From: a virus
Length of the DNA stretch: 64,000 nt
Strand: one strand, 5' to 3'
Virus record (IMG/VR): IMGVR_UViG_3300032753_001573
Span: 32,001-96,000 of that record
Under the pieces are notes generated by a model. It saw only the letters and a program-made list of their open reading frames with translations. It did no database searches and was not told the DNA's origin. Positions 25,906-58,733 of this stretch are shown here, one piece after another. Position 1 is the stretch's first letter. Each line of letters starts with the position of its first letter. Made by a program: the position numbers and the translations under genes.

Positions 25906-27531
<1,626 letters not shown>

Positions 27532-27553
27532 TACTACACTCATATACTCAATG

Positions 27554-27583
27554 AGGAAAGGGACACTGTGTCCCTTTCCTTTT
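27554..27583 (+). terminator. rho-independent terminator after groEL
   Basis: aggaaagggaca-ctg-tgtccctttcct-ttt. Confidence 0.85.
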
Positions 27584-27634
27584 AATTTTACACAACCGCT
27601 TGGCAAAGTAGCATTTATTGCGCATAATGCATAT

Positions 27635-30199
27635 ATGAAAACCTGCACAGTAATACTTGAAGACGAATGCAACATTAAACTTGAAGGTCTCGACCTAAAC
27701 ACTAGGCGCGATTGCGTAAAGACGGTTAAGTACTTCTTGCCCCACGCAAGATATAGTGCAGCTTACAAACTTGGTAGATGGGACGGGACAACTAGCTTTT
27801 GTACAATTGGCGGTAGAACCTACCTCAATCTTCTTGACAAGATGCTACCTGTATTGGCAGAAAATGGATATACGGTAGAGCTAGATGACAAGCGACACAC
27901 GTATGATTTTAAATTTGATAAGATAGATGAGAATTACCTAAGCAACATAACTTGGCCTACAGGACACAGAGCAGAAGGTCAACCCATAATACTTCGAGAC
28001 TATCAAGTTCAGGCTATCAACGAGTGCATTGATAATTTGCAGGGACTCAGTATTGCTCCTACTAGTGCGGGCAAATGTCAACCTCTAAGCAGCAAGGTTA
28101 AAGTACCGGGCGGCTGGATAGAAATGGGAGATATATCGGTAGGTGATGTGATAACTATACCAGACGGTAGTACAGCTAGCGTGATTGGAGTGTATGATCC
28201 CGGTATCAAAGATGTATACGAGATAACCTTTGAAGACGGACGTAAGGTCAGATCATGCAGCGATCATATATGGAAGGTTCATAATCATAACCGGACTAAC
28301 AAGTGGAAGCTTTTAAGCTTATCAGAGATAATAGCATATCAAAAAACTAATAATAGACACATATCTGTGCCATTAGCATCGCTAGTTAACGATACTTGTG
28401 TTGCAGATCTACCGATGCATCCGTACCTACTTGGTGTACTACTTGGCGATGGATCATTCGGGCATTGTTTTGGTATCACATCGGCAGATGAATTCATACT
28501 TAATAAAGTATCTTCTCTTCTTGATTCTGATTATAAACTGTCACATATATCAAGATATGATTATAGTATAAAATTTGTATCTGAAGATGTTCACATGAAA
28601 AAGCGATCAGAATGGATGAAACATTACCCGCGTCGTGCAAATGGTACTACACTGCCAAATACAACTTATCAAACCTATCATATGTATAAATCGATAATTA
28701 AAGATCTTGGATTGTCAGGAACTCGCAGCCATACAAAGTTCATACCTCAGATATATCTCAATGCAGGATATGAACAAAGGTTGCAGATGATACAAGGCTT
28801 GTTGGACACAGACGGGTATGTTGATCGTCGAGGTTGTATAAGTTTTACGACTACAAGCCAAAAGTTAGCTGACGATTTTGCATATCTTATCAGAAGCGTT
28901 GGAGGTATTGCTAAACATACTAGAGGCACGAATAGGAAATATCGATATAATAGTGAAATAGTGCCTTGCAAAGATTGTTTCAATGTATCTGTATATCATC
29001 CTACTCCTGCAATATTAGTTACCTTGCCGCGTAAGCTAGAAAGAATAAATTCTCGTAATGTTAAACGACAGCCAGTGTTACATATTGTTGACATACAGAA
29101 AGTATCAACGGAACCGGTGCGTTGCATAATGATTGACCATCCCGACCATCTGTATTTGACAGACAATTTTGTAGTAACACATAACACACTTATTACTGCC
29201 AGCCTTAGCAAGATAGCAGAGAAGTATGGCCGTACTATTGTCATAGTCCCAAATAAAAACCTAGTACAACAGACAGAAGAAGATTATCGAAACATAGGAT
29301 TAGAAGTTGGAGTGCTGTTTGGCGACCGTAAAGAGTATGATAAAAAACATACTATTTGTACATGGCAGAGTCTAAACGTACTAGACAAGAAGAACAAAGA
29401 TGCGCTTGACGATGATCAATTATCAGTGTTCCTTGACGGGCTCATTGCAGTTATTTGCGATGAAGTCCATATGGTAAAGAATGCTAATGTGTTACATACC
29501 TTATTAACTACGACATTTTCTAGCATTCCAATACGTTGGGGATTAACTGGTACCATACCAGAAGAAGAATACAATCAAGTTAGTTTATATAGTGCTATAG
29601 GACCTCTTATTGGTTCTCTCACTGCCAAAGAATTACAAGAAGCTGGGCACCTAGCACAGTGCAATATTAACATACTACAAACTCAAGAAACCGCCGTATA
29701 TAACGATTATCAATCAGAGCTAAAATATCTAGTGACAAACAAAGATCGATTACAGTGGCTAGCCAATAAGGTTACTGAAATATCCAAGACAGGTAATACA
29801 CTGGTTCTGATAGATCGTATCGAAACTGGTGAGATACTAAATGAGATGTTACCCGATGCTACATTTATCAGTGGTAAGATGAAGGCTACTAAACGCAAAG
29901 AACATTACAAGGAAATTAATCTAGAGAACAATTCAGTAATGATTGCTACATATGGTACAACTAGTACCGGTATTAGTATCAATCGAATCTTCAATCTAGT
30001 GTTAGTTGAACCTGGTAAGAGCTTCGTGCGTGTTATACAGAGCATTGGTCGTGGCTTACGCAAAGCGGATGATAAGGATGCAGTTGAAGTTTACGACATA
30101 GCTAGCAAGTGTAAGTTTAGCAATAGACATCTGCTCAAGCGTAAGAAGTTTTATAAAGAAGTATCATATCCGTTTGATCAAGAAAAGATTATGTACTAA
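27635..30199 (+). CDS. uvsW: UvsW-like SF2 helicase containing an intein
   Basis: WDG, LRDYQ, APTSAGK|..|T, DEVH, GLTGT, QSIGRGLR; ATG 27635 follows TTGGCA-N17-CATAAT. Confidence 0.92.
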   Translation: MKTCTVILEDECNIKLEGLDLNTRRDCVKTVKYFLPHARYSAAYKLGRWDGTTSFCTIGGRTYLNLLDKMLPVLAENGYTVELDDKRHTYDFKFDKIDENYLSNITWPTGHRAEGQPIILRDYQVQAINECIDNLQGLSIAPTSAGKCQPLSSKVKVPGGWIEMGDISVGDVITIPDGSTASVIGVYDPGIKDVYEITFEDGRKVRSCSDHIWKVHNHNRTNKWKLLSLSEIIAYQKTNNRHISVPLASLVNDTCVADLPMHPYLLGVLLGDGSFGHCFGITSADEFILNKVSSLLDSDYKLSHISRYDYSIKFVSEDVHMKKRSEWMKHYPRRANGTTLPNTTYQTYHMYKSIIKDLGLSGTRSHTKFIPQIYLNAGYEQRLQMIQGLLDTDGYVDRRGCISFTTTSQKLADDFAYLIRSVGGIAKHTRGTNRKYRYNSEIVPCKDCFNVSVYHPTPAILVTLPRKLERINSRNVKRQPVLHIVDIQKVSTEPVRCIMIDHPDHLYLTDNFVVTHNTLITASLSKIAEKYGRTIVIVPNKNLVQQTEEDYRNIGLEVGVLFGDRKEYDKKHTICTWQSLNVLDKKNKDALDDDQLSVFLDGLIAVICDEVHMVKNANVLHTLLTTTFSSIPIRWGLTGTIPEEEYNQVSLYSAIGPLIGSLTAKELQEAGHLAQCNINILQTQETAVYNDYQSELKYLVTNKDRLQWLANKVTEISKTGNTLVLIDRIETGEILNEMLPDATFISGKMKATKRKEHYKEINLENNSVMIATYGTTSTGISINRIFNLVLVEPGKSFVRVIQSIGRGLRKADDKDAVEVYDIASKCKFSNRHLLKRKKFYKEVSYPFDQEKIMY
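28076..29185 (+). mobile_element. contiguous intein (370 aa) with LAGLIDADG endonuclease
   Basis: CQPL...SDHIW...YLLGVLLGDG...QGLLDTDG...VVTHN|T, inserted in Walker A (GK|T). Confidence 0.95.
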
Positions 30200-31945: not shown

Positions 31946-32006
31946 GTTGCCGTTCTAGGGCTACGAGGTTGGGATCCCCATAACTAATGAACTGCTCTAT
32001 TTATGG
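31946..32006 (-). ncRNA. candidate structured cis-regulatory leader, copy 1
   Basis: 48-nt core 47/48 identical to 32414-32461, lying between late promoter and SD. Confidence 0.6.
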
Positions 32007-32537: not shown

Positions 32538-33044
32538 ATGGAATGTGCGATGGCAGAAAGTAAACATAAATTAGACATGTTTGGTAAAGTGCTACCTGCA
32601 CTTGATCGGAGAGATCGTAACTTTTATAATAATCTCACTGATGAAGAGAAGAAGGGTTATTCTGCATTGGTCTTGATGAGAGCTATGAGCAGTTTAGGTG
32701 ATCAAAATCCTCATGCTGAGTATGAGTTACTTGCAGTAAATGATATTGTAAACATTGGATTTTGGTCTCTCAGTAAACATACAGAACTGCAACATCTCTT
32801 GTTGTGTACTGCTGGATTAGGTAGTAAACAATATCATCCTTGGATATCTGCCAAAGGTAAAGTTACCAAAACCAATCTTATTGATCAGTTCTTTATGGAA
32901 ATGAACCCAGGAATGAATGAACAAGAACTTGAATTAATGCGGTCTCAACATGATCCTAAGAGTATTAAACGTCTAGCACAGGATGCTGGTAAGAGTGATT
33001 CTGAGATAAAGCGACTTGTTGAAGATGCTAAATCGCTCAAGTAA
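32538..33044 (+). CDS. hypothetical replication protein, possibly clamp-loader small subunit (gp62-like)
   Basis: FY..L..EEKK.YS..VLMR.MS...YHPWI; family recollection only. Confidence 0.4.
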   Translation: MECAMAESKHKLDMFGKVLPALDRRDRNFYNNLTDEEKKGYSALVLMRAMSSLGDQNPHAEYELLAVNDIVNIGFWSLSKHTELQHLLLCTAGLGSKQYHPWISAKGKVTKTNLIDQFFMEMNPGMNEQELELMRSQHDPKSIKRLAQDAGKSDSEIKRLVEDAKSLK

Positions 33045-33735
33045 TAATAAACCTCATGTATGTGAATTTTGCAATCGAGGATTCGTTGAAGAAATCAACT
33101 TGATTAATCATAGTTGCGAGAAGAAGCGCAGGTGGTTTGGTAGAGACGAGCCTGCATCTAGATTGGCTTTTATGGCATGGGCTAGATTTTATGAACTTAA
33201 CAGTAGGTTAGTCAAGCATGGCGCAAAAAAACGCAGTTTTCGAGAGTTTATGGATAGCAAATACTATACAGCATTTGTGAAGTTTGCTAGACAGATCATA
33301 GACCTCAATGCAATGGAACCTGCTAAGTTTATTGATTATGTTATTAAAAATAACCTACCACTAGATAAATGGACACATGATTCTGTATATGAAGCATATG
33401 TGTCTGAGCTAGTTAAGCATGAAGATCCAGAGTCTGCACTAGCTCGTAATATTGAGTTGATGCAACAATGGAGTCAGCAAAGCGGAGAACCTTGGCAGGA
33501 TTTCTTTCGAAAGGTTAGTCCCATTCAAGCCGCTGCATGGATAAAAAATGGTCGAATTAGTCCTTGGGTGCTATATAATGCTGACAGTGCTGAATCACTG
33601 TTAGATCGTTGTGGTCCAGAACAATTGCAGATCATTCAAACTAGTGCTAAGGTACCGCAATGGAAAATACGCTTTAATAAAAATAAAGAAAGTGCAGATT
33701 GGATACGCAACACGCTACGACAAGCAGGTATATGA
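33025..33735 (+). CDS. Zn-finger-containing hypothetical protein
   Basis: CEFCNRGF...L..H.C at the N-terminus; start uncertain (33016 or 33025). Confidence 0.6.
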   Translation: MLNRSSNNKPHVCEFCNRGFVEEINLINHSCEKKRRWFGRDEPASRLAFMAWARFYELNSRLVKHGAKKRSFREFMDSKYYTAFVKFARQIIDLNAMEPAKFIDYVIKNNLPLDKWTHDSVYEAYVSELVKHEDPESALARNIELMQQWSQQSGEPWQDFFRKVSPIQAAAWIKNGRISPWVLYNADSAESLLDRCGPEQLQIIQTSAKVPQWKIRFNKNKESADWIRNTLRQAGI

Positions 33736-33748
33736 TTGGAGATTAAAA

Positions 33749-34051
33749 ATGGCAGATGATATGGATATGTATGATACTGATGAATTTATAGCACCAGAAC
33801 CAAAGACTGTTGAACCAACTTTAACAGCTATAGATAGAGGTATGGTTACTGAGATTGAGATTATGGGTAAACGAATAGAAATTGTAAATCCAAGTTACGT
33901 GAGGGAGTTACAACGTATTATGCTAGATATGAGCAACAAACTTAGAGCAGCTGATAGAAACATCAATACATTGAATTCTAACATCAAGAAGATGAATTCT
34001 CAGATTAATGATCTAAGAGCTCAACTGGCAGGAAAAATTGATCGTGCTTAA
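33749..34051 (+). CDS. coiled-coil hypothetical protein
   Basis: SD ggag before ATG 33749; heptad-like C-terminus. Confidence 0.6.
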   Translation: MADDMDMYDTDEFIAPEPKTVEPTLTAIDRGMVTEIEIMGKRIEIVNPSYVRELQRIMLDMSNKLRAADRNINTLNSNIKKMNSQINDLRAQLAGKIDRA

Positions 34052-34676
34052 ACGAGGAGATATAGATATAGACCTAGCAGATCGAACACGAGCTCTTGCA
34101 GAGCTTCCGCATGTTTCGGCTAGCATTATCAAAGATGGAAAGATTACCAAACACAATACAGGTGTATATTTCCACGCGGTGCCCATCGATCCTGTAACAG
34201 GTCAATGCAGTTGGGATTATGAAGATGCTGACCGCAAGGGCATGTTCAAGATAGACATGCTCAATGTCAGCGTTTATGATATGGTTAGAAATGAACAACA
34301 CCTATTGGATCTTATGGAGAGACCTATAGATTGGACCGTCTTTGAAGATCCAATGTTTGTATCTAAGCTATTTCATCTTGGACATTATGGCAAATTGACT
34401 GCTAAACTGAAACCTCGCAGTATAGAACATATAGCTATGATTTTGGCTTTGATTAGGCCTGGCAAGAAACATCTGCAATCTCGTTGTCTAGAGTACGGTT
34501 TTGATAGTATACGTGATAGCATTTGGACGCACGATTCTGGAGAAGCGTACTCATTTAAGAAGGCCCATGCTGTAAGTTATGCAATGCTTGTTTATGTTCA
34601 TGCGCAAATTCTGGTTGAAAGTTCTGCACAAGATGCTATACTTTTTACTAGTGCTAATTCATCTGGAGCATTTTAA
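34038..34676 (+). CDS. miniature DNA polymerase III alpha (DnaE)-like catalytic core
   Basis: DIDID, KHNTGVY, KIDML, KPRSIE...LALIRPG and YSFKKAHAVSYA, in DnaE order. Confidence 0.8.
   Translation: MIVLKRGDIDIDLADRTRALAELPHVSASIIKDGKITKHNTGVYFHAVPIDPVTGQCSWDYEDADRKGMFKIDMLNVSVYDMVRNEQHLLDLMERPIDWTVFEDPMFVSKLFHLGHYGKLTAKLKPRSIEHIAMILALIRPGKKHLQSRCLEYGFDSIRDSIWTHDSGEAYSFKKAHAVSYAMLVYVHAQILVESSAQDAILFTSANSSGAF
34613..34642 (+). promoter_or_regulatory. sigma70-type early promoter
   Basis: TTGAAA-N16-TATACT with TG extension; 21/30 identical to 24371-24400. Confidence 0.6.
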
Positions 34677-35137
34677 TGCCTACTAAGAAACTGGTTCTCA
34701 ATAGCAAGACTAACATGTTTGGTACCAATCTCAAACTAAGCACTCGAGACGGCTCACATAAATTTTCTGTAGGTAATAATATCAGTTATGATCCTACAAA
34801 GAAACTCAGTAAAAAGCTAGAGACTGGATACCTGTTTAGGAGCCCAAAGTTGGATCCAACTGATCTTTCGGAAATTTGGGACACTGTCGAAGGCTTTGCG
34901 GGTGCTGCGTCGTTGACAGCAGAAATTGATACCAAGAGCAACGAAGTTACTGCCTACATGCGGATCGCCGAAAAGGGCGACGCTGGTATGTTTGCTTACA
35001 CTCATAGCTTGTTTGAAAAGTGGAGCGATGAGAAGACAGCAGAAGCCAAGAAGGACAAGAAGAAGGCTCCCAAGCTTGTTGTTAACAAGGACGGAACTGT
35101 TAAAGTTCGAGTACAAGTAGAATCCCTAGGCAACTAA
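34676..35137 (+). CDS. Lys-rich hypothetical protein
   Basis: SD ggag and its own promoter. Confidence 0.6.
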   Translation: MPTKKLVLNSKTNMFGTNLKLSTRDGSHKFSVGNNISYDPTKKLSKKLETGYLFRSPKLDPTDLSEIWDTVEGFAGAASLTAEIDTKSNEVTAYMRIAEKGDAGMFAYTHSLFEKWSDEKTAEAKKDKKKAPKLVVNKDGTVKVRVQVESLGN

Positions 35138-35139
35138 TA

Positions 35140-35520
35140 TCAATCAATTGCGCGGACCAAAGTTATGGTCCGCCTTTTAATCCTCTTATTAATCATATCT
35201 TTGAGATTAACTACCGGACCTTGTAAAATTTCAGTGTCCTTTTTGGCAAAAGTCTTTAGGTATTTCCTATAGGGCGAAAATCTGTTTTTTAGAAACATGT
35301 TAATAGGGATTGAGCGGTTGCTCTCCCACCACCATATTTCTCCGCATTCTAAGAAATCTCTTTTCATATCAGCAGTAAAACTGATATCCATTACATATAT
35401 GCTTACAAACAAATTGTCGGCATGCTGTATTATTCCTAAATGTTCTTTGCCTAAATGATTGATTATGGTTAAAAATGGGAATTTTTCTTGTAATAATTTA
35501 TAAGTATCTTTATTTGTCAT
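35140..35520 (-). CDS. hypothetical protein
   Basis: FPFL...FLE.GE.WWWESNR.IPIN.FL; late promoter on the minus strand at 35550. Confidence 0.65.
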   Translation of the reverse strand: MTNKDTYKLLQEKFPFLTIINHLGKEHLGIIQHADNLFVSIYVMDISFTADMKRDFLECGEIWWWESNRSIPINMFLKNRFSPYRKYLKTFAKKDTEILQGPVVNLKDMINKRIKRRTITLVRAID

Positions 35521-36467: not shown

Positions 36468-37490
36468 ATGTCGTTGATACATGATGTGATAGCAAGACAC
36501 ATACCTGTAAAGCATCGAAACAGCAATAGAGGCTGGAGGATGTTCAATGCACCGTGCTGTCATCATAGAGGACATAGACCAGATACTAGGATGCGTGGTA
36601 ACATGCTGTTTGCATCTAATGGTGCTATAGCTTACAACTGTTACAACTGTGGTTTAAAGACTAAATTTGATGGTAGAAACCTAAGTAGGAATTTTGAAAA
36701 TTTAATGGTCTGGTTAGGTATACCAGATGACGATGTTAAAAATATCAAGTTAGAACTACTGCAACATCAACTGGATGGCACTAACAATCCCGTTGCGGTT
36801 CAAGATATACGATTTACAACAGACTTTGACGAAGTTGACCTTCCTGAAAATTCAATAGCATTTGATCACATTGCAGTTGAAGATGCAATACCTGAACAAT
36901 TTGTATCAGTGCTATCTTATTTGAATTCTAGAGGTGATGCTATATTGAATGGATGGGATTACTATTGGAGCCCTAGTACCAAATTGGATCTAAACAATCG
37001 AGTAATTATACCATTTTACCATTTTGATAAGATAGTAGGTTGGACAGCCAGATATGCCGGTAGTCCGCCTCACGGAACACCTAGATATTATAACAGTCAA
37101 TTACAACCTGGATATTTGTTCAATTGTGATGTACTAAACGATCGCAATAGGAAATTTGTTTTGGTTGCAGAAGGCCCATTTGATGCTATAGCTCTGTCTG
37201 GTATAGGTACGCTGGGAAGCGAATTGAGTAAGGAACAGATAGCTTGGTTGAATAGCACAGACGCTGAAAAGATAATAGTTCCAGATAGGCAGTTGAAGAA
37301 TCAAGGATTGATTGATGCTGCATTAGACCAAGGATGGTGTGTTAGCTTTCCAGAATGGGAAGATGATGTTAAGGATGCGGCACAGGCATCTCAGAGGTAT
37401 GGCAAGCTATATACTATACGCAGTGCAATAGCTAGCCGAACCAATAGTTCGTTAAAGATAGGTATAAAGAGGAAGATGTTTAGATCATGA
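36468..37490 (+). CDS. DNA primase (gp61-like)
   Basis: Zn domain CC...CYNC, RVIIP, EGPFD TOPRIM motif, KDA. Confidence 0.88.
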   Translation: MSLIHDVIARHIPVKHRNSNRGWRMFNAPCCHHRGHRPDTRMRGNMLFASNGAIAYNCYNCGLKTKFDGRNLSRNFENLMVWLGIPDDDVKNIKLELLQHQLDGTNNPVAVQDIRFTTDFDEVDLPENSIAFDHIAVEDAIPEQFVSVLSYLNSRGDAILNGWDYYWSPSTKLDLNNRVIIPFYHFDKIVGWTARYAGSPPHGTPRYYNSQLQPGYLFNCDVLNDRNRKFVLVAEGPFDAIALSGIGTLGSELSKEQIAWLNSTDAEKIIVPDRQLKNQGLIDAALDQGWCVSFPEWEDDVKDAAQASQRYGKLYTIRSAIASRTNSSLKIGIKRKMFRS

Positions 37491-37936
37491 AAATAGCTCT
37501 AGCAACTGGTGGGTTTGATCCGCCTCATAGTGGACACATTGACTATCTAAAAGCTGCTGCTACTCTAGGTGATAGATTGGTAGTAGGTATCAATTCAGAT
37601 TCTTGGTTGATACGCAAGAAAGGGCAACCTTTTATGCCTGCGCGCGATAGATTGGCAATCATACAGAATCTCAAGATGGTATCGGAAGTAATTGCATTTG
37701 ATGATCGAGATGGTTCTGGATCAGACGCAATAGCAAAGTTGCTATCGTTGTATCCAAACGATCAGATATTATTCTGCAATGGCGGCGATAGGCTTCCTTA
37801 CAATACAAGTGAGATGCGAGTGTTTGAAAATGATCCTCGAGTAAGATTTGAATGGGGTGTAGGCGGATTTGATAAGACAAATAGTAGTTCAAAGTTGTTG
37901 GACGATTGGGTTACCTATATGAATAATCGTACATAA
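37487..37936 (+). CDS. cytidylyl/adenylyltransferase (RfaE domain II/TagD-like)
   Basis: GGFDPPHSGH (HxGH), GINSD..L.RKKG, NGGDR, SSS. Confidence 0.88.
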   Translation: MKIALATGGFDPPHSGHIDYLKAAATLGDRLVVGINSDSWLIRKKGQPFMPARDRLAIIQNLKMVSEVIAFDDRDGSGSDAIAKLLSLYPNDQILFCNGGDRLPYNTSEMRVFENDPRVRFEWGVGGFDKTNSSSKLLDDWVTYMNNRT

Positions 37937-37974: not shown

Positions 37975-39384
37975 ATGGCTCAAGAAGAACAAGATTATAC
38001 TAATGATTATGGTGAAGACAAGCAGAAGCTGTTGATAGATGTAATGCTCAGCAGCGAAGAGATATTCTCTCGATGCCAGAACATCATAAATCCAAAGTAT
38101 TTTGTCAACAAGTTTAGGCCTGCGGTTAGATTTATAATCAAGTACTCTAATGAATTTAGAGTACTTCCTAAAATTGAACATGTTAATGCCGAAACCGGTA
38201 TAAATTTTGTTAGAATTGATAATATATCTGTACAACATCAAGATAGCTTTCTCAAGGAGATAGAGGGATTCTGTAAGAATAAAGCTCTAGCATTAGCTGT
38301 TACTGATAGTGTTGAATTGATTGAGCATGGCAATTATGGAGAAGTAGAGAAGAGAGTTCGAGAAGCTATACTGATCAGTTTACAGAGTGATCTTGGTACA
38401 AACTACTTTGAAGATCCTCGTGCTCGATTGATGAAGATAAAGAGCAAGAACGGTCAGATGACTACTGGTTGGAAAACAGTTGATGATAAACTACATGGTG
38501 GTATCAATAGAGGCGAGATCACAATTTGGTGTGCAGGGTCAGGTGTTGGTAAATCATTGTTCCTGCAGAATCAAAGTTTGAACATGGTCAAGCAAGGGCT
38601 TAATGTTGTTTACATAACTCTTGAGCTTAGTGAAGAACTAACTAGCATGCGAATGGATAGTATGCTAACTGATGTTGGAACTAAAGAAATATTCCGTAAT
38701 CTTGATACAGTTGAGATTAAGGTCAAGCAAGCAGGATTTAAGAGTGGATTGCTGCACGTTAGGCAGTTACCGCAGGGCAGCAATTGCAATGACATCAAGG
38801 CATATCTAAAAAATTATGAAATTGAAACACAGAAGAGACCAGATGTATTGGTAGTTGACTATTTGGATTTGTTGTTTCCTAACAACAAGAAGATTAATCC
38901 TAGTGATCTGTTTATCAAAGATAAGTTTGTAACTGAAGAGCTACGCGGTCTAGCTGTTGAACGCAATATGGTATGTTTGACAGCATCTCAGTTAAACAGG
39001 TCTAGCGTAACTGAGCAGGAACATGATCAAAGCATGATCGCGGGCGGTATTTCAAAGATTCAAACTGCGGATAATGTGATATCTATTTTTGCTAGTGCGG
39101 CTATGAAGGAGCGCGGTCAATATCAGGTACAGTTTTTGAAGACACGTTCAAGTAGCGGTGTTGGTAGCAAAGTATATCTTGGGTTTGATCCTAATACTTT
39201 GCGTATATTTGACTTGGATGAGGATGCTGCTGCACTAGCTAGCAGCACCAACGGAGCCGATGTGTTTAATGAGCTTAGGAGAAAGAATACTGCGGCTACC
39301 AAGAAAGAAACTCAAACTCCTCCTCCGTCACCAATGGCTAGTGCAAAAGATCTAGAGAGTTTGAGAAGCCTTATTCGCAGGTGA
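37975..39384 (+). CDS. DnaB-like replicative helicase (gp41-like)
   Basis: GSGVGKS, ITLELS, VVDYLD, TASQLNR, K.R. Confidence 0.92.
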   Translation: MAQEEQDYTNDYGEDKQKLLIDVMLSSEEIFSRCQNIINPKYFVNKFRPAVRFIIKYSNEFRVLPKIEHVNAETGINFVRIDNISVQHQDSFLKEIEGFCKNKALALAVTDSVELIEHGNYGEVEKRVREAILISLQSDLGTNYFEDPRARLMKIKSKNGQMTTGWKTVDDKLHGGINRGEITIWCAGSGVGKSLFLQNQSLNMVKQGLNVVYITLELSEELTSMRMDSMLTDVGTKEIFRNLDTVEIKVKQAGFKSGLLHVRQLPQGSNCNDIKAYLKNYEIETQKRPDVLVVDYLDLLFPNNKKINPSDLFIKDKFVTEELRGLAVERNMVCLTASQLNRSSVTEQEHDQSMIAGGISKIQTADNVISIFASAAMKERGQYQVQFLKTRSSSGVGSKVYLGFDPNTLRIFDLDEDAAALASSTNGADVFNELRRKNTAATKKETQTPPPSPMASAKDLESLRSLIRR

Positions 39385-53283: not shown

Positions 53284-53409
53284 CTAAAGGTCTTAAAATA
53301 ATTTATAAACATGTACGAGAATATCATGATGAGGTGATGTAAATATGTGCTCAATGACGCAATACGTCATTCATGTTTTTCATCTCACGATTCTATAAGG
53401 AAGGTTCAA

Positions 53410-55059
53410 ATGTCACTGAGCAATAAGTCTGATATCATGGTTATCAAGAGAGAAGGCAGAAAAGAAACGTTAGATGTTGAAAAGTTACACAAAGTGGTAT
53501 TTTGGGCAACCGAAGGTATCAGCGGAGTTAGTGCAAGTGAAGTAGAAATTCGCAGCCAAATACAATTCTATCCTGGTATTACGACTACTGATATACAGGA
53601 AACTTTGATCAAAGCGGCTGCTGAGCTAATATCAGAAGAAACACCAAACTATCAATATGTAGCAGGGCGTTTAATTAACTATCATCTACGCAAACAAGTG
53701 TATGATCGATATGAGCCAAAAGGATTCTTAGACCATATCAAGAAAGTTATCAATGAAGGCTATTATGATCCAGAGATATTATCTTGGTATACAGAAGATG
53801 AAATCAAACACTTAGATTCTCATATCAATCACACTAGAGATTATGATATCACTTATGTAGGTATGGAACAGCTACGTGGCAAATATCTAGTAAAGAATCG
53901 CGTAACTGGACGCATCTACGAAACTCCGCAGATGGCATACATGCTGATAGCAATGGTGTTGTTCCGTCGTTATGGCGCAGATAGGCTAAAGTGGGTCAAA
54001 GATTTTTATGATGCTATCAGCACATTTGAGATCAGCTTACCAACTCCAATTATGGCAGGATTGAGAACACCTCAGAAGCAGTTTAGTTCCTGTGTGTTGA
54101 TTGAGACTGATGACAGCCTCGATAGTATCAGTGCTACTTCTAGCGCTATTGTCAAGTATGTGAGTCAGAAAGCTGGTATTGGAATTGGTGGCGGTCGTAT
54201 AAGAGCTATCAACAGTCCAATACGCAACGGAGATGCTAGCCATACTGGTGTAATTCCGTTCTACAAGCATTTCCAAAGTGCGGTAAAGAGTTGTTCTCAG
54301 GGAGGCGTTCGCGGCGGCGCGGCTACTCTGTACTATCCAATTTGGCACTTGGAAGTTGAAGACCTATTGGTCCTCAAGAATAACAAGGGCATTGAAGATA
54401 ACCGTATACGACACATGGATTACGGTGTTCAATTCAACAAGGTGATGTATGAGAGGTTATTGACTGGCGGTAACATAACCCTGTTTAGTCCTCACGACGT
54501 ACCAGATCTCTATGAAGCATTTTTTGTTGATGTTGATAAATTTAGAGATCTCTATGAAAAGTATGAACGCAGCAGTAAGGTAAGAAAAAAGTCTGTACCG
54601 GCTATAGAACTGTTTGGCAGTTTTATGCAGGAACGCAAGGACACCGGTCGTATCTATCTTATGAATGTAGATCATGCTAATGATCACGGGTCATTTATTA
54701 AAGAACTTGCTCCTATTAGACAGAGCAATTTGTGTCTAACAGGTGATTCTATGATTAACATCATGGGAACAGATGGTGCAATACAACATATCACACTTCA
54801 AAGCTTTGTAGAACAATACGAGCTTGGAGGAATGCATGGCGTTAAGGTTAAAAGTTACAACATAGATACTGATACAGTGACTTGGAATTTAGTAAGTAAT
54901 GCTGCAAAAACTGCAACGGTTACGACATTAATTGAAATTGAAGATGCGAGTGGTAAAATTATACGTTGTACTCCAGACCATCAGATTTTTACTAAAAATA
55001 GAGGATATGTTATGGCTAAAGACCTAAAAGAAACTGACGTGCTATGCACTGAAATATGA
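53410..55059 (+). CDS. nrdA: class Ia ribonucleotide reductase alpha, N-terminal part with a 108-aa N-intein (54733-55056)
   Basis: ATP-cone VIKREG, TPIMAG, QFSSC, QGGVRGG, QSNL|CLTGD...CTPDH. Confidence 0.95.
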   Translation: MSLSNKSDIMVIKREGRKETLDVEKLHKVVFWATEGISGVSASEVEIRSQIQFYPGITTTDIQETLIKAAAELISEETPNYQYVAGRLINYHLRKQVYDRYEPKGFLDHIKKVINEGYYDPEILSWYTEDEIKHLDSHINHTRDYDITYVGMEQLRGKYLVKNRVTGRIYETPQMAYMLIAMVLFRRYGADRLKWVKDFYDAISTFEISLPTPIMAGLRTPQKQFSSCVLIETDDSLDSISATSSAIVKYVSQKAGIGIGGGRIRAINSPIRNGDASHTGVIPFYKHFQSAVKSCSQGGVRGGAATLYYPIWHLEVEDLLVLKNNKGIEDNRIRHMDYGVQFNKVMYERLLTGGNITLFSPHDVPDLYEAFFVDVDKFRDLYEKYERSSKVRKKSVPAIELFGSFMQERKDTGRIYLMNVDHANDHGSFIKELAPIRQSNLCLTGDSMINIMGTDGAIQHITLQSFVEQYELGGMHGVKVKSYNIDTDTVTWNLVSNAAKTATVTTLIEIEDASGKIIRCTPDHQIFTKNRGYVMAKDLKETDVLCTEI

Positions 55060-55075
55060 TTACCAACATAAATAC

Positions 55076-56050
55076 ATGCAACGGAGAGGTTGCATGTATA
55101 AGTTGCTGTATAAAGATATTATTGATAATGCTAAAGCTGAAAATAGGATTAAAAAACCTAGAGTATATTATGAATGGCATCATATCGTTCCAGATTTTTT
55201 ATTCAAACATCGATCAAGACGTGGGCCATCGGGGCATTTAGATGGTAATCCTAATTCAGTTGATAACTTAGTATTATTAACTTTCAAAGAACATCTTATG
55301 GCACATTACTATCTATATGAAATATACAAAGATACTAGATATGGTTATGCAGCAGGATCTGCATTGCAATTCTTTTATACAAAAGCTACAGGTAAACACA
55401 AAAGACAACAGAATTTATCTAAACCAGATGAAGAGTTTTTAAATGAAATGTTGCATTTAAGAGAAATTGGTATAAAAAGTATCTCTGCTGCAAAATCTGG
55501 TAAGATGCCAGCCGTTGACGCACATACTAGGGAAAAGATTGGATCTGTACCAGTAGATCATCCAAAGGTAATATCGGGTGAATGGATTCATCATTCGAAA
55601 GGACAACCTTATAAAGGAATCTTAAAAGATCAAAAAGGGTCTAACAACAATAATTTTAGAGAAATGACTTTTCAACGCAAGGAACGATTATTCGATTGCG
55701 TCTCAAAATCATTGATTGACGGTAACTATTTGTCAATAAAGGCGTTGGTGCAAAATTTAAAAGAAGAATTTACCGAATTTAAAAAAATATCATTGGTTTG
55801 GGTGTGTAATAATTTTGGTAACATTAATAATTTAGTAGACGAATTCAACAAGGCGCGCGGTAGATCTATTGTATATTTCAGTTATTATAGAGGTAAAAAT
55901 CAGCGTGCCGTGTTAAGGAACCATAGCTTAAACTATGTGTGGGTTACTAACGGGTATACCAATACAAAGATTAGACTAGATGAGATTGATGAATATCTAA
56001 ATAATAATCCAGCATATACGAGAGGTAGAATTAACTATGATAAAGATTAG
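55076..56050 (+). mobile_element. MobE-like HNH homing endonuclease between the nrdA halves
   Basis: EWHHIVP...N..DNLV.LT.KEH..AH; CATAAATA at 55067; start may be 55094. Confidence 0.85.
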
Positions 56051-57122
56051 AACTATAGAGATTAACCCAACTGATGTATACGACATTACTGTTCCAGAAA
56101 CCTCATGTTTCTTTGCTAATGATATATTAGTTCACAACTGTGCCGAGATCAGCTTACCAACTAAGCCGCTCAATGATATTAAAGATCCAGACGGAGAGAT
56201 TTCACTTTGTACCCTAGCTGCCGTAAATTGGGGCAAGATACGAGATCCACATGATTTTGAGCGTCCTTGTACTTTGGCTGTACGTGCGCTGGACGAACTG
56301 CTGGATTATCAGGACTATCCGGTACTTGCAGCTCGCAACTCAACTATGGCACGTAGACCACTTGGTATTGGTATTATCAATTTGGCCTATTGGTTGGCTA
56401 AGAATGATTTGAGCTATCAGGGCATCACAACAGATGGCCTAACCAAATTGCACAATTACACTGAAGCATGGAGCTACTATCTAATCAAGGCCAGCGTTGA
56501 TCTAGCCAAAGAGAAAGGTGCATGTCCAAAGAGCAATGAGACCAAATATGCTCAAGGTATTATGCCAATTGATACATACAAGCGCGATGTTGATGAGCTC
56601 GTAAATCCTATTTACAAGTTGGATTGGGATGCGTTGAGATCTGATGCAGTGGCATATGGCATCCGCAATAGCACGCTTATGGCATTGATGCCAGCAGAAA
56701 CATCTGCACAGATCAGCAACAGCACCAATGGTATTGAACCACCTCGCAGTTTGATAAGCATCAAGCAGAGCAAGGATGGGGTGCTCAAGCAGGTAGTTCC
56801 AGAGATACGTAGGCTCAAGAACAAGTATGATTTACTCTGGGATCAGAAAAGCCCAGTTGGGTATTTGAAGATCTGTGCAATTTTGCAGAAGTTCATTGAC
56901 CAATGTATAAGTGTAAATACATCATATAATCCCAAGCACTATGCAGAAGAGCAGATACCAATGAGCGAAATGCTACAACATTTGTTAATGCATTACAAGT
57001 GGGGAGGCAAGACTTTGTATTATTTCAACACCATGGACGGTGCTGGTGAAATTGATGTGAAGCTGCCAGAGCTAGCTGCAGGACAAGTTGACGACGAAAA
57101 TTGTGAAAGTTGCACTATATAA
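56037..57122 (+). CDS. nrdA: 34-aa C-intein (56037-56138) fused to NrdA C-terminal part
   Basis: MIKI...VYDITV....FFANDILVHN|CAEI; LC.L, PAETS, KTLYY, CESC. Confidence 0.95.
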   Translation: MIKIRTIEINPTDVYDITVPETSCFFANDILVHNCAEISLPTKPLNDIKDPDGEISLCTLAAVNWGKIRDPHDFERPCTLAVRALDELLDYQDYPVLAARNSTMARRPLGIGIINLAYWLAKNDLSYQGITTDGLTKLHNYTEAWSYYLIKASVDLAKEKGACPKSNETKYAQGIMPIDTYKRDVDELVNPIYKLDWDALRSDAVAYGIRNSTLMALMPAETSAQISNSTNGIEPPRSLISIKQSKDGVLKQVVPEIRRLKNKYDLLWDQKSPVGYLKICAILQKFIDQCISVNTSYNPKHYAEEQIPMSEMLQHLLMHYKWGGKTLYYFNTMDGAGEIDVKLPELAAGQVDDENCESCTI

Positions 57123-57125
57123 AAG

Positions 57126-58733
57126 ATGTTTAGTTATGTAGAATGGTTTAAAGAAACTCTCTTTAATGCTCGAGGAAAATTAAATCCTCGAGCAAGCTCG
57201 CCAGTCTGGTGGTCAAATTTTACAGATCAATATGTTGATTTTAAAGAATCAACTATTTGGCTAGATGCAGAAAGTAGCTTTGCAGAAAGATCTTATTGTT
57301 ATATCAATCTTTTAACAGAAAGACCAACTTGTAAGGTTTGTTCAAATTTTGTAAAGTACAGCAAAGTTAAGAGGGGGTATAGCGAATATTGTAGCTCCGG
57401 GTGTGTGACCAAAGACAAGTCTATATTGGAAAAAAGATGTAGAACTATGGTGGACAGATACGGATATGTGAAAAATTTTTCATCTGAAAAACACAGATCT
57501 GTCGCACAAGTTGCAATTGAAGAAAAATGGGGTGTTGATCATCCTATGAAGTCTCAAATATTGATAGACAAGTTAAAAAACAAACATATCAACAAATATG
57601 GAAGTCATTATACTCAAACTGAAGAATATCAGCAGAAACGTAAAAAAACTTGTATTGAAAAATACGGGGAAGACAGCCATATGAAGTTGCCCGCCTTTCG
57701 TGATACAATTGGAAATTTGAATCGTAAATTAACCGATAAAATAAAAGATGAAATAAAGCATGATTACACGTCTGGCATGGCAAAACAGACATTATCTGAA
57801 AAATATGACATCAGTTTGAGTCATATGAACAAGATTTTAACTCTTATGGGGTTAGAAACAGATCTTCCTCAGAACAAAATAAATTATAACAAATGTTGGA
57901 AATCTTCTGCTGAGTTAGAACTAGTACATTGGTTAACAGAATTTTATCGCGGTCAAATACTGACTAGTCAAAGGTCACTGATATGGCCCTACGAGGTTGA
58001 CATTTATTTGCCAGAGATCAAACTAGCAATTGAATTCAACGGTACATATTGGCATTCTGATATATTCAAAGATCGCAATTATCACAAAAACAAAATTGAA
58101 AAACTAGAATCAATTGGCATAGATTGCGTTATGATATTTGAAAATATTTGGAATGACAGGAAGGACCTAATAAAAAGTAAACTGCTATCAAAGATATTGA
58201 AGTTACCTTCTATAGGTGCTAGAAAGTGTATCATTAAACCAATAGATTATAAGATATTGTCTGAATTTACAGAAATCTATCATTTGCAAGGGTCCAGAAC
58301 TAGTAGAATAAATTACGGTGCATATAACCAAGGCGAACTTGTTGCTTGTGCATCATTTAATAAATTCAGAGATGGGTTAGAGTTGGTTAGATTTTGCTCC
58401 AAACAAAGAGTTGTGGGTCTATTACCAAAAATTTTAAAATATCTTAAGATTTCATTTAATGGTCCTGTTTATTCATTTGCTAACAGGTGTTACACTTACA
58501 GATATAAGAATTTATACTCGATGAATGGATTTTCTGAGATTGACGTAACTGACCCCAATTATTATTATGTAAAAGGCAAAACAGTTCTAACTAGAAATGC
58601 TTGTATGAAACACAAGTTATGTAATTTTTTAGAAAATTTTGATCCAAATATATCTGAATACGAAAATATGAAAAAAGATGGTTGGCATAGATATTGGGAT
58701 TGTGGTAATATACTTTACAAGATAGATATATAA
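57126..58733 (+). mobile_element. free-standing putative homing endonuclease (Vsr/EDxHD-like) with YGxx repeats
   Basis: CKVC...YCS, repeated (Y/W)G motifs, DIYLPEIKLAIEFNGTYWHSD, ARKC...HLQG...WDCG. Confidence 0.75.

Follow-up and report, generated by a model that had tools for sequence, protein, structure and literature searches.

A viral DnaE-like gene that probably encodes the C-terminal unit of a two-gene minimal DNA polymerase

Introduction

C-family DNA polymerases are the replicases of bacteria and are normally 1000–1400 residues long. A cyanobacterial DnaE is reportedly split into two parts that are joined by the DnaE split intein, as Wu, Hu and Liu are said to have described in 1998. 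Like the phage enzyme considered here, the cyanobacterial enzyme draws its C-family catalytic subunit from two distant genes; there, however, a full-length enzyme is interrupted in its fingers region and the split intein splices the halves, whereas the phage enzyme is interrupted within the palm, after the GS motif and before the DxD strand, involves no intein, and measures ~380 aa in all. Phages also encode C-family polymerases in one piece. The full-length DnaE of group 3.2 jumbo phages (e.g., Bacillus phage G; phrog_405) is a host-like single chain of about 1100–1200 aa with a PHP domain and is the sole replicase, whereas the split enzyme accompanies a family B polymerase (PolB).

The closest described system comes from jumbo phages of group 2.2 (Rak2/PA5oct/Atu_ph07-like): the "split minimal DNA polymerase III alpha", which Iyer, Anantharaman, Krishnan, Burroughs and Aravind described computationally (Iyer et al. 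2021, Viruses 13:63; PMC7824862). In that description, the enzyme is divided into an NTP-binding N-terminal unit (N-unit) and a Mg2+- and template-binding C-terminal unit (C-unit), and a role beside PolB is suggested, in repair, gap filling or the synthesis of one strand. N-units had been noted earlier as a "truncated" 172-aa Pol III alpha (CBB_328; PMC5259590) and as a Pol III alpha subunit (Atu_ph07 gp316; PMC6102473). A literature search returned no biochemical study of the activity of the split enzyme or of its heterodimer.

We analyzed a C-unit gene in a stretch of 64,000 nucleotides of viral DNA (hereafter the window), which comprises positions 32,001 to 96,000 of the IMG/VR record IMGVR_UViG_3300032753_001573 (155,688 bp, CheckV completeness ~36%). 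The split enzyme has already been described by Iyer et al. (2021; PMC7824862), and the window gene adds a member to it: family (PHROG 11778 + 11127), length, conserved gene order and the division of labor between the two units are the same. The window gene is unlike the described group 2.2 copies in that it comes from an uncultivated lineage, is coupled to an extra 153-aa ORF downstream, and has its partner off the fragment. Our additions are the precise position of the junction in DnaE, models of high confidence, an estimate of selection, the conserved gene module, and two single-chain forms. A palm and proximal fingers encoded in two genes bear on what the minimal catalytic unit of the C family is, and on the origin of that family from Pol-beta-like nucleotidyltransferases.

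Results and Discussion

The polymerase ORF (window positions 34038–34676, plus strand) has 212 codons and starts with TTG at 34038; the public gene call (P0002) starts at GTG 34044 and yields 210 aa. It is gene number 4 in a tightly packed, co-oriented run (32538–35137), its start overlapping the stop of the upstream ORF (33749–34051) by 8–14 nt and its stop overlapping the ATG of the downstream ORF (34676–35137) by 1 nt. The record extends for 66 kb and 89 kb on the two sides of the ORF. Its assignment as the C-unit of a split minimal DnaE-like polymerase draws on PHROGs (phrog_11778), BLASTP, an AlphaFold2 model, and Foldseek and VIA-align comparisons.

The profile of phrog_11778, annotated "DNA polymerase", matches the ORF over its full length (PHROGs: E = 6.3e-60, residues 5–195 on profile positions 5–194 of 197), and the full-length DnaE family phrog_405 matches it at profile positions 554–680 (E = 5e-8). 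Against the E. coli DnaE reference (L012, extracted from NC_000913), pairwise BLASTP aligned C-unit residues 25–186 with DnaE 511–686 (E = 7e-6 for the pair), which pairs KIDML with KFDFL (D73 = D555) and LIRPG with LFRPG. A second BLASTP segment aligned residues 170–186 with DnaE 753–769 (YSFKKAHAVSYA on YGFNKSHSAAYA) and placed H177 on H760, which is the steric-gate residue of Pol III alpha in E. coli (PMC8485763). With a profile of 103 relatives, hhalign aligned residues 58–143 with DnaE 540–642. The only Pfam match to the C-unit was DNA_pol3_finger, below threshold (E = 0.014); neither PHP nor any other Pfam domain was matched.

The catalytic motifs, all on the plus strand, can be placed accordingly on the E. 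coli enzyme. DIDID (34059–34073) occupies the position of DFDVD, with D8 and D10 equivalent to the catalytic D401 and D403 and D12 to D405, as indicated by collinearity, conservation, the structural range given below, and the strand at residues 9–13 of the model. KIDML (34248–34262) contains K71 and D73, equivalent to K553 and to D555, the third catalytic carboxylate (BLASTP and hhalign; both residues invariant). The RPG finger motif R140-P141-G142 (34455–34463) corresponds to E. coli LFRPG (BLASTP, hhalign and conservation), and the finger helix FKKAHAVSY (34554–34580) carries H177 (second BLASTP segment and conservation). Among 103 family members at 28–75% identity, D8, D10, K71, D73 and P141 are invariant, and D12, H39, G42, R140, K143, K174 and H177 are conserved in at least 90%. 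BLASTP, profile and structure thus agree with the preliminary description that the ORF exists as claimed and is a true DnaE homolog, its motifs collinear with those of E. coli DnaE and its catalytic carboxylates intact. The pairing of KHNTGVY with HAGG that had been proposed there is probably one strand off: BLASTP puts HAGGVVI on HVSASII (aa 25–31), and in the AlphaFold2 model KHNTGVY forms the second strand of the HVSASII hairpin (strands at 26–32 and 35–44).

The AlphaFold2 model of the C-unit, built on an alignment of 103 sequences, is of high confidence (pLDDT 95.9, pTM 0.88). When it was compared with the PDB by Foldseek, the best 15 matches were all C-family polymerases (probability 0.54–1.00, with the top ten at 0.99 or higher), and VIA-align gave Z = 10.0–10.6 against the structures 2hnh (E. 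coli), 3e0d (Taq), 5lew (M. tuberculosis) and 3f2b (PolC), the next unrelated fold reaching Z = 3.4. Residues 1–198 of the model were superposed on residues 395–781 of E. coli 2hnh (190 residues aligned, rmsd 3.6 Å). Because the model aligns to this span, the C-unit represents the second part of the palm plus the proximal fingers and, judged from the model, is without the thumb (E. coli about 433–510) and without about half of the finger residues of the span. An earlier statement that PHP, HhH and OB domains are lacking and that the thumb and much of the fingers are gone is correct, both by Pfam, which finds no such domains, and by the structural span. In sum, the C-unit resembles bacterial DnaE and PolC (2hnh, 3e0d, 5lew, 3f2b) in its Pol-beta-like palm with DxD...D, the K553 equivalent, RPG and F-x-K-x-H-x-x-x-Y, and is unlike them in having no PHP, thumb, distal fingers, clamp-binding motif, HhH, OB or tau-binding domain, in a palm that is shared between two polypeptides, and in Pfam models that stay below threshold. 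A conserved C-terminal clamp-binding tail was considered for the family and rejected, being present in just 8 of the 103 sequences.

In E. coli DnaE (...VGPGRGSGAGSLVAY...), the triphosphate-binding helices and the GRGS loop precede the DxD strand; the C-unit starts 7 residues ahead of that strand, at the equivalent of E. coli ~395, and an equivalent of GRGS (E. coli 361–364) is absent from it. Because the N-terminal third of the palm, with the GS motif, is missing, the C-unit is not a complete minimal core. The preliminary description, which had called it a minimal core, was right that the three catalytic aspartates are kept, but the self-sufficiency implied by the term does not hold. For annotation of the window, this means half of a core and not a whole one, with a partner that is known by family.

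That family was found when residues 261–403 of E. coli DnaE were searched against PHROGs, where they matched phrog_11127 (171 positions, "DNA polymerase", E = 7e-5), a family of 2700 clusters of ~173-aa proteins that carry Pfam PF07733 and the GRGS motif. One copy each of the phrog_11127 gene was present in Sinorhizobium phage Phosso, in Pseudomonas phage Paride, and in G001, a complete IMG/VR relative of 518,643 bp that is the closest complete one and whose C-unit is 70% identical to the window copy. The two genes lie far apart: the N-unit is at 97 kb and the C-unit at 321 kb in Phosso (~224 kb apart), at 59 and 15 kb in Paride (~43 kb apart), and at 12 and ~339 kb in G001 (~327 kb apart; 191–327 kb). 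In SHEFM2K and phAPEC6 the halves are separated by 31 kb, and in phage records with both genes they are never adjacent, with 31–327 kb between them. By tblastn, each half occurs in 96 phage records, with almost equal tallies by genus; for the C-unit, all of these records are jumbo phages or pieces of jumbo phages.

No N-unit was found on the 155,688-bp record by searches with Pfam PF07733, phrog_11127 and phrog_21652/11165/12219, by scans for the GRGS and FERF motifs, or by tblastn with three N-units. This is expected of a fragment, since the halves of G001 are 191–327 kb apart and the flanks available here are 66 and 89 kb. The 155.7-kb fragment also has neither PolB nor a DnaQ-like exonuclease; in G001, a 922-aa PolB is encoded at 224.5 kb and an ORF of the RNase_T family (DnaQ-like exonuclease) at 107.7 kb. 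A weak phrog_21652 match at window positions 56070–56147, taken up as a candidate N-unit, was rejected because it belongs to an intein block of NrdA. As the partner gene was not found in the record, we infer the two-gene arrangement of this phage from its relatives, and its N-unit gene would lie outside the fragment. An earlier suggestion that the ORF belongs to a multi-subunit enzyme holds insofar as the C-unit appears to be a subunit of something larger. None of the three co-oriented neighbors that had been proposed is the missing subunit, which is the distantly encoded ~173-aa phrog_11127 protein.

A word-based search for longer, fused relatives returned none, whereas an exhaustive phmmer search returned P0176 (375 aa) and P0260 (336 aa), two proteins in which the N-unit is followed directly by the C-unit in a single chain. 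Both are from short metagenomic contigs (2.4 and 8.0 kb), and neither is mentioned in the available sections of Iyer et al. (2021). We folded P0176 with an alignment in which the placement of N-units and C-units had been verified. The model (pLDDT 88, pTM 0.85) aligned over 323–358 residues with M. tuberculosis DnaE1 (Z = 21.5), Taq Pol III alpha (Z = 20.2), PolC (Z = 18.0) and E. coli Pol III alpha (Z = 15.2). After the C family, the next matches were Pol-beta-like nucleotidyltransferases, namely terminal uridylyl- and poly(A) transferases (Z ~3.5). Adding the N-unit doubled the structural score, and N-unit plus C-unit make a continuous C-family palm. The two natural fusions are also convenient constructs for biochemistry.

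On the strength of sequences and models, we consider it highly probable that the ORF at 34038–34676 is the C-terminal unit of a two-gene, PHP-less and thumb-less DnaE-type polymerase, and we predict a non-covalent, dNTP-using heterodimer. The C-unit supplies the DxD strand (D8, D10), a beta-hairpin, the strand with K71 and D73, and a small helical version of the fingers that retains RPG and the putative steric-gate histidine (H177). The dNTP triphosphate would be held by helices and a GRGS loop that the separate ~173-aa N-unit (phrog_11127, PF07733) contributes. The two would associate non-covalently, without an intein, into one Pol-beta-like nucleotidyltransferase palm, and the heterodimer would act as a template-dependent DNA polymerase. 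The use of dNTPs and of a template is suggested by the retention of the steric-gate histidine and the finger motifs and by the position of the gene in a replication module. Beside the family B replicase of the phage, the enzyme may serve in repair, fill gaps or synthesize one strand.

It is improbable, in our view, that the split enzyme is real but repurposed, e.g., as a terminal transferase, as a maker of primers or nucleotide second messengers, or in DNA modification. Such a change of function would agree with the loss of the thumb, PHP, clamp-binding, HhH and OB parts, with the family B polymerase in the complete relative G001, and with the versatility of Pol-beta-fold enzymes, to which the terminal uridylyl- and poly(A) transferases that follow the C family in the structural comparison belong. 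However, the enzyme retains the parts of the fingers that touch template and incoming dNTP, among them the equivalent (H177) of the histidine that excludes rNTPs in E. coli (H760), and a helicase-primase-DnaB module surrounds the gene in all relatives compared. The retained histidine and finger motifs likewise disfavor the nucleotide-signaling or priming role that had been put forward for the ORF.

The gene order around the C-unit runs from a helicase through ORF 30254 and further ORFs to ORF 32538, ORF 33016, the C-unit, the reverse-strand ORF 35140, ORF 35602, a primase and DnaB, and this helicase...primase-DnaB order is kept in 8/8 relatives compared (22–89% identity). The upstream boundary of the conserved replication module is a Superfamily-2 helicase (27551–30199, plus strand; ResIII/DEAD and Helicase_C by Pfam) with a LAGLIDADG intein, whose orthologs in Phosso and Paride are annotated "DNA helicase". 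At the downstream end are a DNA primase homolog (36468–37490, plus strand), 32–35% identical to the proteins annotated as primases in Phosso and Paride and without a Pfam match at 1e-3, and a DnaB-type replicative helicase (37975–39384, plus strand; Pfam DnaB_C, E = 1.8e-16). A 149-aa cytidylyltransferase-like ORF (37487–37936; Pfam CTP_transf_like, E = 9e-15) stands between primase and DnaB in the closest relatives only, and the helicase is closely preceded by a GroEL-type chaperonin (25909–27531; Cpn60_TCP1, E = 7e-75; phrog_5725).

The co-oriented run itself opens with a 168-aa ORF (32538–33044, plus strand; phrog_11758) that has a same-position ortholog in 8/8 relatives (35–75% identity). 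It is followed by a 239-aa ORF (33016–33735, plus strand; phrog_11058), syntenic in 8/8 relatives, with an N-terminal CCHC/C2H2-like zinc finger in which C16, C19, H32 and C34 are invariant and which resembles eukaryotic C2H2 fingers (PRDM9, E = 9e-16). The remainder of this protein is conserved too, including a GR(I/L)SPW motif, and the gene is immediately upstream of the C-unit in every relative examined. Next comes a 100-aa ORF (33749–34051, plus strand), the one that overlaps the start of the polymerase ORF, with orthologs in L016, L017 and L019 only; its Pfam matches are weak and below threshold, several of them to long-helical proteins (myosin tail, fibrinogen alpha), and it reads as coiled-coil-like. 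The 153-aa ORF downstream of the C-unit (34676–35137, plus strand) occurs in L016, L017, L019 and L022 only, has no family match in Pfam or PHROGs, and is absent from the isolate phages compared. A terminator-like hairpin of 8 bp, 6 of them GC (35152–35173, plus strand), closes the run.

These neighbors bear on the reading first given to the ORF, that of a stand-alone minimal polymerase or nucleotidyltransferase core acting by itself or with the co-oriented 32538, 33016 and 33749 products. The three carboxylates are all there, the packed and overlapping ORFs are compatible with translational coupling, and ORFs 32538 and 33016 keep their place in every relative. Yet the half of the palm with the GS motif is absent and is supplied by a dedicated, co-occurring family that is fused to the C-unit in P0176 and P0260; searches of Pfam, PHROGs, PDB (sequence and profile) and the ESM Atlas found no DnaE similarity in the neighbor ORFs, and a zinc finger only in 33016–33735; and ORFs 33749 and 34676 are not conserved outside close relatives. 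A stand-alone core is very improbable on this evidence.

In a two-gene DnaE, a split intein might instead ligate the halves once they are translated, on the pattern of the cyanobacterial enzyme, and inteins do occur elsewhere in this phage (helicase, NrdA). The ends of the two units, however, form an exact junction on the DnaE sequence. N-units end with ...WGVGRGSSV.SYVL.LIG......LD..EFLK/N, the equivalent of E. coli ...FERFLN, stopping right past the EFLK/N motif, and C-units open at the equivalent of PER...PDxDxD, 7 residues before the DxD strand; there is no space for IntN or IntC blocks, and the C-unit has no Pfam intein match. Post-translational joining has next to no probability and is, judging by these sequences, already contradicted. 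It had been held that DnaE parts found elsewhere as intron- or intein-split exons would speak against a polymerase core of this kind; the rest of the palm is indeed a separate gene, in the relatives, but the junctions contain no intein or intron sequence. As a separate observation, residues 261–403 of E. coli DnaE also match the last 110–120 positions of phrog_7513 (461 positions) and phrog_13169 (463 positions); these families seem to end at or near the same point of the palm, so other phage DnaEs (PHP plus N-terminal palm) may be split there as well.

The family is large. A word-indexed search with the C-unit gave 1026 clusters of 116–371 aa, and the exhaustive phmmer search gave 375 representatives at 50% identity, nearly all of 180–215 aa; the mini-DnaE family as a whole amounts to thousands of clusters and sits in the replication module of a whole jumbo-phage lineage. 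The C-units nearest to the window copy are on IMG/VR contigs (70–76% identity), and copies in Phosso, PA5oct-like phages, Atu_ph07, GAP32 and PBECO4 are 38–47% identical to it. Many relatives are annotated "DNA polymerase III alpha subunit" by JGI. Between the window gene and its relatives, pN was 0.15–0.23 and pS 0.77–0.86, a saturated value. A dN/dS of the window gene itself is not computable because its synonymous sites are saturated; in one unsaturated pair of relatives, dN/dS was 0.07. The C-unit family is under strong purifying selection, and with pN far below pS the preliminary description's argument against decay is upheld. The notion that the halves are decaying remnants (pseudogene fragments) of a full-length phage DnaE, prompted by a C-unit of about one-fifth of DnaE length and by an N-unit called "truncated" in an older paper (PMC5259590), is already contradicted by the purifying selection, by a length that is constant across hundreds of diverged lineages, by invariant active-site residues, and by a compact fold with a very confident model, and its probability is negligible.

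More tentatively, the two-gene mini-DnaE (~380 aa in total) and the single chains of 336–375 aa may be active as they stand, a prediction that we regard as possible but doubtful; the loss of the thumb and of clamp binding might be offset by phage partners such as the CCHC protein (33016–33735) or the phrog_11758 protein (32538–33044). If so, the next smallest C-family polymerases would be three times as large; the architecture would be a new one among multi-subunit polymerases and could serve as a model of the ancestral Pol III core.

Inteins and homing endonucleases are found at other places in the window. The Superfamily-2 helicase ORF has 882 aa vs about 485–510 aa in most relatives, with LAGLIDADG_3 at aa 409–495, and its insert reads as an intein in the Walker A GKT because it begins with Cys after ...APTSAGK and ends with ...THN before TLITAS. 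The large subunit of a class I ribonucleotide reductase (NrdA) is spread over two ORFs (53347–57122), of which ORF 53347–55059 combines the ATP-cone and the N part of the barrel with an N-terminal intein block, and ORF 56037–57122 has the remaining barrel together with a C-terminal intein block. Between them, a homing endonuclease is encoded by an ORF of its own (55076–56050), and the arrangement looks like a split intein or an intein with a separately encoded endonuclease. A further homing-endonuclease ORF (57126–58733; phrog_3339, E = 1.6e-103) is located between nrdA and nrdB, which makes this region dense in selfish elements.
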